Assembly: GCF_054482525.1 (NCBI RefSeq)
Contig: NZ_CM137006.1
Strand: one strand, 5' to 3'
DNA: 64,000 bases
The notes under the pieces: model-generated
The model's input: the letters and a program-made list of their open reading frames with translations, nothing else
Database searches by the model: none
What the model was told of the DNA's origin: nothing
Position numbers and translations under genes: made by a program
Shown: positions 20,758 through 60,269 of the stretch, piece by piece
Layout of the letters: every line of letters starts with the position of its first letter
Numbering within the stretch: position 1 is the stretch's first letter

Positions 20758-21513
<756 letters not shown>

Positions 21514-21559
21514 TTTTTACCGTTGCATCATGTCGCCCAATATGATGCTTGCTCGTACC

Positions 21560-21592
21560 AGGCCCCTGCAATTTCAACAGGGGCCTTTTTTT
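21560..21592 (+). terminator. rho-independent terminator after cutC
   Basis: stem AGGCCCCTG/CAGGGGCCT followed by T7. Confidence 0.65.
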
Positions 21593-48714: not shown

Positions 48715-49356
48715 ATGAAAAACTGGAAAACAAGTGCAGAATCAATCCTGACCACCGGCCCGGTTGTACCGGTTATCGTGGTAAAAAAACTGGAACACGC
48801 GGTGCCGATGGCAAAAGCGTTGGTTGCTGGTGGGGTGCGCGTTCTGGAAGTGACTCTGCGTACCGAGTGTGCAGTTGACGCTATCCGTGCTATCGCCAAA
48901 GAAGTGCCTGAAGCGATTGTGGGTGCCGGTACGGTGCTGAATCCACAGCAGCTGGCAGAAGTCACCGAAGCGGGTGCACAGTTCGCAATTAGCCCGGGGC
49001 TGACCGAGCCGCTGCTGAAGGCTGCTACCGAAGGGACTATTCCTCTGATTCCGGGGATCAGCACTGTTTCCGAACTGATGCTGGGTATGGACTACGGTTT
49101 GAAAGAGTTCAAATTCTTCCCGGCTGAAGCTAACGGCGGTGTGAAAGCCCTGCAGGCGATCGCGGGTCCGTTCTCCCAGGTCCGTTTCTGCCCGACGGGT
49201 GGTATTTCTCCGGCTAACTACCGTGACTACCTGGCGCTGAAAAGCGTGCTGTGCATCGGTGGTTCCTGGCTGGTTCCGGCAGATGCGCTGGAAGCGGGCG
49301 ATTACGACCGCATTACTAAGCTGGCGCGTGAAGCTGTAGAAGGCGCTAAGCTGTAA
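48715..49356 (+). CDS. eda: KDPG / KHG aldolase
   Basis: 213-aa ORF matching Eda. Confidence 0.97.
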
Positions 49357-49364
49357 AAGTCAAA

Positions 49365-49392
49365 ATGCCCGATCGAGGATCGGGCATTTTTG
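49365..49392. terminator. bidirectional rho-independent terminator between eda and purT
   Basis: 10-bp perfect stem ATGCCCGATC/GATCGGGCAT with a T-run after and an A-run before. Confidence 0.7.
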
Positions 49393-49410
49393 TAGCGTTT
49401 TTCGCCGGGG

Positions 49411-50589
49411 TTAAGCTTGTACTTTTATCTGTGCTGCGGCGTGCTTTGCGCGCTCAATCGCTTCATCAACACTCTCTGCAGTAGCCAGTGCCACCCCCAG
49501 ACGACGGCTGCCATCAATTTCCGGCTTACCAAATAAACGAATCTGTAGGCCTGCGCCTACGGCATTCTGCACATTATCAAACGTGACATTCTGACTGGTC
49601 AGTTGTGGCAGGATAACGGCAGAAGCTGCAGGACCATACTGACGGATCCCGCCAACCGGAAGTCCGAGGAAGGCACGTACATGCAGGGCAAACTCTGAGA
49701 GATCCTGAGAAATTAACGTCACCATCCCGGTATCATGTGGACGAGGGGAGACCTCACTGAAAATCACCTCATCACCACAGACAAACAGCTCGACACCAAA
49801 CAGACCATAACCGCCCAGTGCCAGCACCACTTTACGGGCAATCTCTTGCGCACGTTCAAGGGCAAGCTGGCTCATTTGCTGTGGTTGCCAGGATTCACGG
49901 TAGTCGCCATCTTCCTGGCGATGACCTACTGGTGCACAGAAATGGACGCCATCCACCGCGCTGACGGTTAGCAGGGTAATTTCGAAGTCAAACTTAACGA
50001 CGCCTTCAACAATTACGCGGCCCGCTCCGGCGCGACCGCCTTGCTGAGCGTACTCCCATGCATGAGCAAGTTGCTCTGCAGAACGAATAAACGTCTGCCC
50101 CTTGCCGGAGGAACTCATCACCGGTTTAACAATGCAGGGATAGCCGATTTCAGCAACCGCCTCGCGGAAAAGGTTTTCGTTATCGGCAAAACGATAAGTG
50201 GAAGTGGGCAGCTGCAGCTCTTCTGCCGCCAGGCGACGGATACCCTCGCGATTCATCGTTAATTTCGTTGCGCGCGCGCAGGGGACAACATTCAGTCCTT
50301 CCTCTTCAAGTTGGATCAGCATATCGGTGGCAATAGCTTCGATCTCCGGCACGATATAATGTGGTTTTTCCAGTTCAACCACACGGCGTAATGCATCACC
50401 ATCAAGCATATTAATGACATGGGAGCGATGCGCGACATGCATGGCTGGTGCGTCGGCATAGCGATCAACGGCAATCACTTCTACGCCGAGACGCTGACAC
50501 TCGATTGCCACTTCTTTACCCAGTTCACCGGAGCCTAATAACATCACGCGAGTTGCTGCCGGACGCAGCGCAGTGCCTAATAACGTCAT
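49411..50589 (-). CDS. purT: formate-dependent phosphoribosylglycinamide formyltransferase PurT
   Basis: 392-aa ORF, ATP-grasp family, matches PurT. Confidence 0.95.
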
Positions 50590-50626
50590 AACGAATATCC
50601 CCTGATTAATTCCGCGCGCAGTATAA

Positions 50627-50642
50627 ACGAAAACGTTTGCGC
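50627..50642. promoter_or_regulatory. PurR box upstream of purT
   Basis: reverse complement GCGCAAACGTTTTCGT matches the PurR operator consensus ACGCAAACGTTTTCNT; 38-53 bp upstream of the purT start. Confidence 0.75.
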
Positions 50643-50687
50643 GTGTCTTTATTGCTGATGTTGATTTCCCAACCGAAAAGAAATATA

Positions 50688-50703
50688 CTGTATAAAATCA
50701 CAG
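50688..50703. promoter_or_regulatory. LexA (SOS) box upstream of yebG
   Basis: CTGTATAAAATCACAG fits CTGT-N8-ACAG, 20 bp upstream of the yebG ATG. Confidence 0.8.
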
Positions 50704-50722
50704 TTATTATGAGAGGCTGCAA

Positions 50723-51013
50723 ATGGCGGTTGAAGTTAAATACGTAGTCATTCGTGAGGGCGAAGAGAAAATGTCGTTTACCAGCAAAAAGGAAGCCGAT
50801 GCTTATGACAAAATGCTTGATACGGCGGATCTGCTTGACACCTGGCTGACAAATTCTCCAGTGCAAATGGAAGACGAGCAACGTGAAGCCCTTTCGCTAT
50901 GGCTGGCAGAACAAAAAGATGTGCTTAGCACCATTCTGAAAACCGGCAAATTACCGTCCCCACAGGTCGTCGGTGCTGAATCCGAAGAGGAAGATGCCTC
51001 ACACGCGGCCTGA
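50723..51013 (+). CDS. yebG: SOS-inducible protein YebG
   Basis: 96-aa ORF MAVEVKYVVIREGEEKMSFTSKKEADAYDK. Confidence 0.9.
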   Translation: MAVEVKYVVIREGEEKMSFTSKKEADAYDKMLDTADLLDTWLTNSPVQMEDEQREALSLWLAEQKDVLSTILKTGKLPSPQVVGAESEEEDASHAA

Positions 51014-51031
51014 AGCAACTTGCGCTCCTGA

Positions 51032-51436
<405 letters not shown>

Positions 51437-51439
51437 TGG

Positions 51440-51560
51440 CTTCTGATAATTCGATTGACCGTTGGCGGATGCGGCGCGAATGCCTTGTCCGCCCCACAAC
51501 GCACCACAATCGTAGGCCTGAGAAGACGCAACAGCGTCGCATCGGGCAATCAGCATCAAA
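51440..51560. repeat. REP-like palindromic elements between yebF and yebE
   Basis: GGATGCGGCGCGAATGCCTTGTCCGCC and CGTAGGCCTGAGAAGACGCAACAGCGTCGCATCGGGC motifs. Confidence 0.5.
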
Positions 51561-51762
51561 CAGTGCTACTCAAAACGTCAAACTACTTTCACCTAAAATA
51601 CCCTTATCACCTGATATACAGTGAACACCTTACCTGGCGCGAATTTCTTTGAATAACGGCCTACCGACCCGCTTATTTGCGCATCTTTTGTCTCGATATA
51701 CATTTTCTGACATCCTCATCCGCTATGCTACAGGCACTAAAAATGGTTATTGAGGAGCAAAT

Positions 51763-52422
51763 ATGGCTAACTGGTTAAATCAACTGCAATCCTTGCTTGG
51801 GCAAAGCAGTTCTTCTGCCTCCTCGTCTGCGGATCAGGGATTGGGCAAACTTTTAGTGCCAGGCGCATTAGGCGGACTGGCTGGGCTGCTGGTCGCAAAT
51901 AAATCAGCACGTAAACTTCTTACGAAATATGGCACCAACGCGTTACTGGTTGGCGGCGGAGCGGTCGCGGGTACGGTGCTGTGGAATAAATACAAAGATA
52001 AAATTCGCGCGGCGCATCAGGACGAACCGCAGTTTGGCGCGCAAAGTACGCCGCTGGATGAGCGTACGGAACGTTTGATCCTTGCGCTGGTCTTTGCCGC
52101 TAAAAGTGATGGTCATATTGATGCCAAAGAACGTGCGGCAATCGACCTGCAATTGCGTGAAGCCGGCGTGGAAGAACAGGGGCGTGTACTCATTGAGCAG
52201 GCAATCGAACAACCGCTGGATCCACAACGCCTGGCTACCGGGGTCCGCAATGAAGAAGAGGCGCTGGAAATCTATTTCCTGAGCTGCGCGGCTATTGATA
52301 TTGACCATTTTATGGAACGCAGTTACCTGAATGCACTGGGTGACGCGCTGAAAATCCCCCAGGATGTTCGTGACGGCATTGAACGCGATCTCGAACAGCA
52401 AAAACGTACTTTGGCGGAATAA
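51763..52422 (+). CDS. yebE: DUF533-family inner membrane protein YebE
   Basis: 219-aa ORF matching YebE. Confidence 0.9.
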
Positions 52423-52585
52423 TTCCGCTCTCTGGATAGCCTGAAGTTGACTATTTCGGGCTATCCAGAACCGCACAGCCATTTGAGCAGGCTGATTTTC
52501 TCTGTCTGCATAACATTCGATATCCGCGCCATTACCTGTCATCATGTGACTGCTCCCCGCCCTGTCGGGCGAGGCTTCCCACTTC

Positions 52586-59945: not shown

Positions 59946-60032
59946 AACATTTAAGCTAATGACCCCCACGCTTTTTATTGACCATTTTGCACGCAAACTG
60001 GAAAACCTGGCGTCGTCATCTATTCTTAAAGG

Positions 60033-60135
60033 GCAAGGCAACTAAGCCTGCATTAATGCCAACTTTTAGCGCACGGCTCTCTCCCAAGAGCCATTTCCCT
60101 GGACCGAATACAGGAATCGTGTTCGGTCTCTTTTT
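60033..60135 (+). ncRNA. sdsR: small RNA SdsR (RyeB), sigmaS-dependent Hfq-binding sRNA
   Basis: GCAAGGCAACTAAGCCTGCATTAATGCCAACTTTTAGCGCACGGCTCTCTCCCAAGAGCCATTTCCCTGGACCGAATACAGGAATCGTGTTCGGTCTCTTTTT matches the SdsR sequence from memory and ends in a terminator hairpin plus U-run; -10 element CATCTATTCT with C at -13 just upstream. Confidence 0.85.
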
Positions 60136-60269
60136 ATCTGTTAAAAGCCAGAAGCATTCCTTTCGCTGACTTTATAGTCAACCATAACACACACTCTACT
60201 GTCTGAGTCCAGCATTTTTTAACATTCCTGTTAAGATTATGTGATCTTTAGCGCGGGAGGAAAATATTG

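Follow-up and report, generated by a model that had tools for sequence, protein, structure and literature searches.

The 133-bp region between purT and yebG very probably contains two independent simple-repression promoters arranged back to back, one under the control of PurR and the other under the control of LexA. The region was analyzed within a stretch of 64,000 nucleotides of DNA, hereafter the window. On the purT side, PurR together with its corepressor (hypoxanthine or guanine) would fill the spacer between the −35 and −10 hexamers and exclude RNA polymerase, so that a plentiful supply of purines would switch purT off. On the yebG side, LexA bound from the −10 hexamer through the start site would block initiation until its RecA-stimulated self-cleavage after DNA damage. 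The best explanation for the closeness of the two boxes is therefore a compact gene arrangement rather than a coupled switch, whereas the initial annotation of this DNA had suggested that purine repression and SOS induction may interfere sterically at the two promoters.

The open reading frames and the sequence place the divergent intergenic region at 50590-50722, and the features within it are listed in Table 1. The boundaries of the region and of both boxes, with the LexA core taken as the 16-mer, were exact in the initial annotation. In annotated records of identical E. coli DNA, the neighborhood has the gene order zwf-edd-eda-purT / yebG-yebF-yebE-ptrB, and a 501-bp query across the site recovered the locus in 5425 of 5426 complete E. 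coli genomes. Compared with K-12 MG1655, the intergenic region in the window differs at two bases, 50642 and 50669, both of which are C in the window and T in K-12. Position 50669 lies within the yebG promoter spacer, while position 50642 is the outermost base of the PurR box, which matches the consensus at 15 of 16 positions in the window and at 16 of 16 in K-12. An exact 42-mer around the PurR box was found in 1522 of the 5381 matching E. coli genomes; the other 3859 fell into the 95-99% identity band, corresponding to about one mismatch in 42. The three strains examined at this base (K-12, SY3626C1, and 2018-06-4CC) all have T at 50642; the C of the window strain is the minority allele. A 91-aa open reading frame with a TTG start on the minus strand (50606-50881) was set aside as a mechanical reading frame antisense to yebG.

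Table 1. Features of the purT-yebG region in window coordinates. Majority fraction is the mean over the feature in a 34-species alignment.
Feature	Position	Strand	Majority fraction	Basis and remarks
purT CDS	49411..50589	−		Formate-dependent GAR transformylase, 392 aa; start codon 50589-50587; ORF and RefSeq annotation of identical E. coli record
purT RBS AGGGGA	50598..50603	−		8 nt before ATG; putative, read from the sequence
purT start	~50613	−		Predicted, after the G+C-rich discriminator GCGCGCG
purT −10 TATACT	50620..50625	−	0.97	Promoter scan, AAGACA-18-TATACT; PMC3946193
PurR operator GCGCAAACGTTTTCGT	50627..50642	−	0.96	In the purT −35/−10 spacer; about −14 to −29 of the predicted start; 15/16 to consensus
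purT −35 AAGACA	50644..50649	−	0.75	Promoter scan; PMC3946193
Variable gap	50650..50660	.	0.47	11 bp between the back-to-back −35 hexamers; indel site in other species
yebG −35 TTGATT	50661..50666	+	0.76	Promoter scan; PMC3946193
yebG promoter spacer			0.44
yebG −10 TATACT	50684..50689	+	0.98	Promoter scan, TTGATT-17-TATACT
LexA (SOS) box TACTGTATAAAATCACAGTT	50686..50705	+	0.90	20-mer; core CTGT-N8-ACAG at 50688-50703, CTGTATAAAATCACAG
Alternative yebG −10 TAAAAT	50693-50698	+		Exactly 9 bp downstream of TATACT
yebG start	~50696	+		Predicted from the promoter scan
yebG RBS GAGAGG	50711..50716	+		Putative, read from the sequence; GAGGCTGCA block conserved in Enterobacteriaceae
yebG CDS	50723..51013	+		DNA damage-inducible protein YebG, 96 aa; ATG at 50723; ORF and RefSeq annotation of identical E. 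coli record

A simple sigma-70 scan of 50300-51100 (800 bp) returned exactly two promoter-like sites, one for each gene and each embracing its own operator. Both promoters are also printed for the purT-yebG spacer in the RpoD genomic-SELEX study (PMC3946193). The two sites thus lie inside their own predicted promoters and each acts locally, which is not a demonstration that the two interact.

The PurR box GCGCAAACGTTTTCGT is a 16-bp imperfect palindrome with a central CG that departs from the consensus ACGCAAACGTTTTCGT by one mismatch, and it is located within the purT core promoter, 37 bp upstream of the ATG. When up to one mismatch was allowed, the PurR pattern had this single site in the 64 kb, compared with 0.00 expected from 100 shuffles. 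The published data for K-12 agree with this assignment. A PurR ChIP-chip peak with the motif ACGAAAACGTTTGCGT was detected at purT by Cho et al. (2011, PMC3159470), where purT is among the genes that are directly repressed by PurR with adenine and derepressed in a purR deletion. Moreover, Sort-Seq of K-12 purT (Belliveau et al. 2018, PMC6003448) resolved both promoter hexamers and, between the −35 and the −10, a repressor site whose effect depended on adenine. The energy matrix of that repressor site matched PurR, its signal was lost in a purR deletion, and DNA-affinity purification with hypoxanthine enriched PurR on the site, leading these authors to describe purT as a "simple repression" architecture (PMC6003448). 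The published binding and repression experiments used the K-12 allele, from which the operator in the window differs by one outer base. Taken with the conservation described below, these data bear out the earlier assignment of a near-consensus PurR operator to purT. Of the promoter hexamers on this side, the −35 (TGTCTT as read on the plus strand) is kept in Enterobacteriaceae and substituted in Erwiniaceae in the alignment. Downstream of the purT −10 lies a discriminator (TATACT-GCGCGCGG, 50612-50619, minus strand) that is rich in G+C here and in most of the aligned species. Discriminators of this kind are typical of promoters inhibited by ppGpp and DksA.

On the yebG side, the LexA 20-mer spans about −10 to +10 and covers the last four bases of the predicted −10 TATACT as well as the predicted start. 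The CTGT-N8-ACAG pattern on its own is not rare: it occurs twice in the window, compared with 0.63 expected. However, the 20-mer fits an AT-spacer SOS-box pattern of the TACTGTATATATATACAGTA type that has one match in the window, compared with 0.01 expected. The box is identical to that of K-12, for which a heterology index of 6.3 (Courcelle et al. 2001, quoted in PMC11228462), a 4.4-fold induction by AZT, and a 9.7-fold lexA dependence (PMC11228462) are available. Sort-Seq of K-12 yebG identified RNA polymerase and LexA sites and induction by mitomycin C (PMC6003448), and yebG coclusters with genes of the LexA regulon over 260 conditions (PMC4576408). The yebG gene of Salmonella ranks with the SOS genes that respond most strongly, rising 41-fold with nalidixate, and its box stands 17 bp from the ATG (PMC8072944). 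The reading of this site as a LexA box for yebG, made initially from the letters of this DNA, is therefore well founded in its AT-rich spacer, its overlap with the −10 and start, its conservation, and the published lexA-dependent induction.

The register of the yebG promoter deserves comment, since PMC6003448 puts the RNA polymerase site of yebG 9 bp further downstream than an earlier computational annotation had. Two 9-bp shifts fit this description, either from TTGCTG (50652) to TTGATT (50661) or from TATACT (50684) to the alternative hexamer TAAAAT (50693). The comparison of species favors TATACT as the −10, in the register TTGATT-17-TATACT, because TTGA occurs exactly 17 bp upstream of a TATACT-like hexamer in 41 of 59 species and because the TA at 50684-50685 is conserved despite its position outside the LexA 20-mer. 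If the downstream register were used instead, with a start near 50705, the distance from the purT elements would only grow, and the conclusion of independence would be unaffected; the LexA box covers either −10, with TAAAAT lying entirely inside the 20-mer. A CRP site around the TCACA within the LexA box was also considered by eye and rejected because no TGTGA half-site stands at the right distance.

Neither the PurR box nor the LexA 20-mer is expected by chance, and conservation is far stronger evidence for both boxes than these chance statistics. A scan for YebG with one genome per species gave 80 loci. In 59 of them, the arrangement is compact, with purT divergent from and adjoining yebG; the genera with this arrangement include Escherichia, Citrobacter, Salmonella, Klebsiella, Raoultella, Kosakonia, Phytobacter, Cedecea, Pantoea, and Erwinia. 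The compact intergenic regions are 128-141 bp long, with one case of 261 bp. Both boxes were present in 79 species, namely all 59 compact loci and all 20 Yersiniaceae. The PurR box of the compact loci is perfect in 40 species and has one mismatch in 13 and two in 6, always on the purT strand, and in the 20 Yersiniaceae it likewise lies on the purT strand with 0-2 mismatches. It stands 35-43 bp from the purT ATG in the compact arrangement, as against 56-87 bp in Yersiniaceae. The LexA core occurs in every compact locus, 57 of the 59 having perfect CTGT and ACAG halves, and is perfect in all 20 Yersiniaceae; it stands 16-21 bp from the yebG ATG in the former and 18-40 bp in the latter. The phylogenetic footprint, taken as the mean majority fraction over the alignment (Table 1), is high over both −10 hexamers and both operators and low over the gap between the −35 hexamers and over the yebG promoter spacer.

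The same comparison shows how far the two modules can be moved apart. The boxes are 59-63 bp apart from center to center in 54 of the 59 compact species. The remaining five species have longer distances: Klebsiella spallanzanii stands at 188 bp, and the other four at 69, 71, 71, and 73 bp. The corresponding insertions, +8 to +13 bp in the four species and 126 bp in K. spallanzanii, map to the gap between the −35 hexamers, and both boxes are kept. The small insertions (+8, +11, +11, and +13 bp) are too inconsistent to argue for helical phasing of the boxes. The K. spallanzanii insertion (2303-2430 of locus L049) is an imperfect palindrome placed precisely between the −35 hexamers, leaving the PurR and LexA boxes intact. 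Its terminal arms are 27 nt long, a CCCCGGTCAC...CCCGGGG hairpin lies at its center, and it resembles an ERIC element. In the 20 Yersiniaceae (Yersinia, Serratia, Chimaeribacter, and Edaphovirga; loci among L054-L082), purT and yebG are 1.7-2.1 kb apart. The one Yersiniaceae spacer that was read, that of Yersinia pestis (1025-2407 of locus L079), contains a gene in the yebG orientation for a 460-aa DEAD-box helicase that resembles dbpA. The spacing is thus not obligatory, since neither box was lost where 8-13 bp or 126 bp entered the gap or where the genes lie 1.7-2.1 kb apart. Each box travels with its own gene, so that neither needs the other nearby, and this separability across 79 species makes the two modules most likely independent.

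We considered whether the bound repressors, or one repressor and the RNA polymerase of the opposite promoter, could clash across the intervening DNA, as the initial annotation had proposed. The boxes are indeed close, as it had stated, with 45 bp between the two 16-mers (43 bp when the LexA 20-mer is used) and 61 bp between their centers. In addition, the −35 hexamers are only 11 bp apart, so that the far-upstream contacts of each polymerase would fall over the other core promoter, and the 59-63 bp spacing of most compact species also speaks for such a clash. However, the gap of 43-45 bp corresponds to about 145 Å of B-DNA, a length several times greater than that by which a dimer of either repressor extends past its operator. 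About 83 bp separate the predicted start sites; relative to these, the PurR operator would lie between about −54 and −69 of yebG and the LexA box between about −73 and −92 of purT, each more than 50 bp upstream of the opposite predicted start and outside the usual −55 to +20 footprint of the polymerase. These distances would increase by 9 bp if the downstream yebG −10 were used. The two operators are therefore neither shared nor in contact, each lying inside only one of the predicted promoters. Moreover, when the whole purT-yebG intergenic region was mutagenized and read in both directions by Sort-Seq, mutations in the distal part had no apparent regulatory effect on either reporter, and the plots were limited to the proximal 60 bp of each promoter, as the only part in which regulation could be seen (PMC6003448). 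Together with the persistence of both boxes in lineages where 8-13 bp, 126 bp, or a whole gene lies inserted between the modules, these observations make steric interference highly unlikely, and this part of the initial annotation does not stand.

Coupling could also arise indirectly, with no clash between proteins, through supercoiling, through competition of alpha-CTD or H-NS for upstream DNA, or through a PurR-induced bend near −61 of yebG that alters wrapping; any of these might produce a modest quantitative dependence of one promoter on the other. PurR bends its operator, which counts in favor of this possibility, as do the back-to-back placement of the promoters, the short distance between their predicted starts, and the largely conserved length of the gap. 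The 59-63 bp spacing in 54 of 59 compact species could reflect constraint rather than mere compactness, which counts against full independence. In addition, an H-NS site is marked in the purT-yebG spacer (PMC3946193). In genomic SELEX, the strongest RpoS-holoenzyme peak of the genome (390-fold) fell in the 5'-proximal part of purT in vitro and a second peak of 63-fold fell in the yebG-purT spacer (PMC5493296); the two peaks, at 1,928,846 and 1,928,972 in the old K-12 numbering, correspond to about 50400-50700 of the window. The H-NS site and the RpoS-holoenzyme binding imply that the region has inputs beyond PurR and LexA. On the other hand, no cross effect was apparent in Sort-Seq, where the reporters were single-direction GFP fusions on a low-copy plasmid and yebG was read without adenine, in the presence of which PurR is bound (PMC6003448). 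Our literature search for cross-regulation returned no report linking yebG to PurR or purT to LexA; after AZT treatment, the purine genes fall as a group and not purT alone (PMC11228462); and the arrangement is dispensable in Yersiniaceae. We consider indirect coupling improbable. Similarly, there is only a slim chance that weak functional coupling, through a PurR bend near −61 of yebG or through supercoiling from divergent transcription, lies behind the near-constant 59-63 bp spacing in most Enterobacteriaceae and Erwiniaceae. If it did, such coupling could adjust yebG to purine status, through its basal expression or the size of its ON subpopulation, or could adjust purT to the SOS state, and would amount to a small case of promoter coupling in a packed genome rather than a new kind of system. 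Two independent promoters, which would show no cross-talk in the chromosome, remain the preferred reading of the region.

Each half of the region has close relatives among known systems, and earlier work on this same locus has already described both operators, both promoters, and their regulators. The K-12 MG1655 purT-yebG region (PMC6003448, PMC3159470) has the same location, LexA box, predicted promoters, and gene order (edd-eda-purT / yebG-yebF-yebE), and the window departs from it only at the two bases given above. The purT operator, which lies in the −35/−10 spacer, has no substantive difference from those of the pur-regulon promoters purF, purMN, purC, and purEK, which likewise have a 16-bp palindromic operator with a central CG in the promoter core and corepressor-dependent repression; purT is listed alongside the pur-regulon genes in the motif table of PMC3159470. 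Likewise, yebG does not differ substantively from the SOS promoters sulA, dinI, and umuDC, in which a single CTGT-N8-ACAG box with an AT-rich spacer lies over the −10 and start, and its heterology index is mid-range, with lexA-dependent induction. Divergent regions under a shared or overlapping operator are also known, as in uvrA/ssb, which share one LexA box, and in bioA/bioBFCD, which are controlled by BirA. While purT-yebG resembles these pairs in having divergent genes with a short common control region, it has two repressors with two operators 43-45 bp apart that are evolutionarily separable. The purT-yebG region has already been used as a worked example of promoter dissection at base-pair resolution and offers little discovery value; what is added here is the separability argument from 79 species, the map of features in window coordinates, and the minority allele at 50642 in the PurR box.

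Several further observations were made in and around the locus. An Rfam E-value scan of 49000-52500 detected no RNA element in the purT-yebG intergenic region. Sub-threshold matches to naRNA4 (RF02564) were found between yebF and yebE on the minus strand at 51418-51494 and 51515-51566, with 29.4 and 28.3 bits compared with a gathering score of 59.5, and these matches are most likely REP-type repeats. Elsewhere in the window, matches at the gathering level were obtained for the known E. coli small RNAs C0465 (7949-8026, minus strand), MicL (21285-21592, plus strand), SraC/RyeA (59995-60139, minus strand), and SdsR/RyeB (60036-60135, plus strand), all of which are expected in this chromosomal stretch. 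In Citrobacter koseri NCTC10786 (1198-2368 of locus L007) and C. amalonaticus AUH_CA_2023_1 (1199-2369 of locus L017), purT was split into two tblastn segments in different frames, with the breaks at residue 348 and at about residues 307-314, suggesting a frameshift that would be due either to a pseudogene or to an assembly error.

The LexA box of yebG also varies within E. coli, where at least two alleles occur. The window and K-12 have CTGTATAAAATCACAG, and the GTDB representative genome has CTGTATAAAAATACAG (2466-2481 of locus L003), which is closer to the consensus and is accompanied by several further changes in the yebG promoter spacer. A 47-mer taken from the window had no megablast match in 949 of 5426 E. 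coli genomes, probably because of variant alleles such as that of the GTDB representative. In Salmonella, natural variation at a single base of this box changes how large the ON subpopulation of yebG is (PMC8072944). A more drastic change was found in E. coli MS 21-1 (NZ_CP146670.1; 2553-4578 of locus L087), in which the ISL3-like element ISEc53, about 1.9 kb long, is inserted in the 8-bp spacer of the LexA box (50692-50699 in window coordinates). This copy of ISEc53 carries a passenger gene of the ClbS/DfsB family. Its junctions read CTGT[ATAAAATC]-IS-[ATAAAATC]ACAG, revealing an 8-bp target duplication, and the ends of the element are GGGTCTTCCCC...GGGGAAGACCC. The insertion splits the LexA operator and displaces the yebG −35 and −10 by 1.9 kb from the gene. 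The exact junction was present in one of the 5426 genomes, that of MS 21-1.
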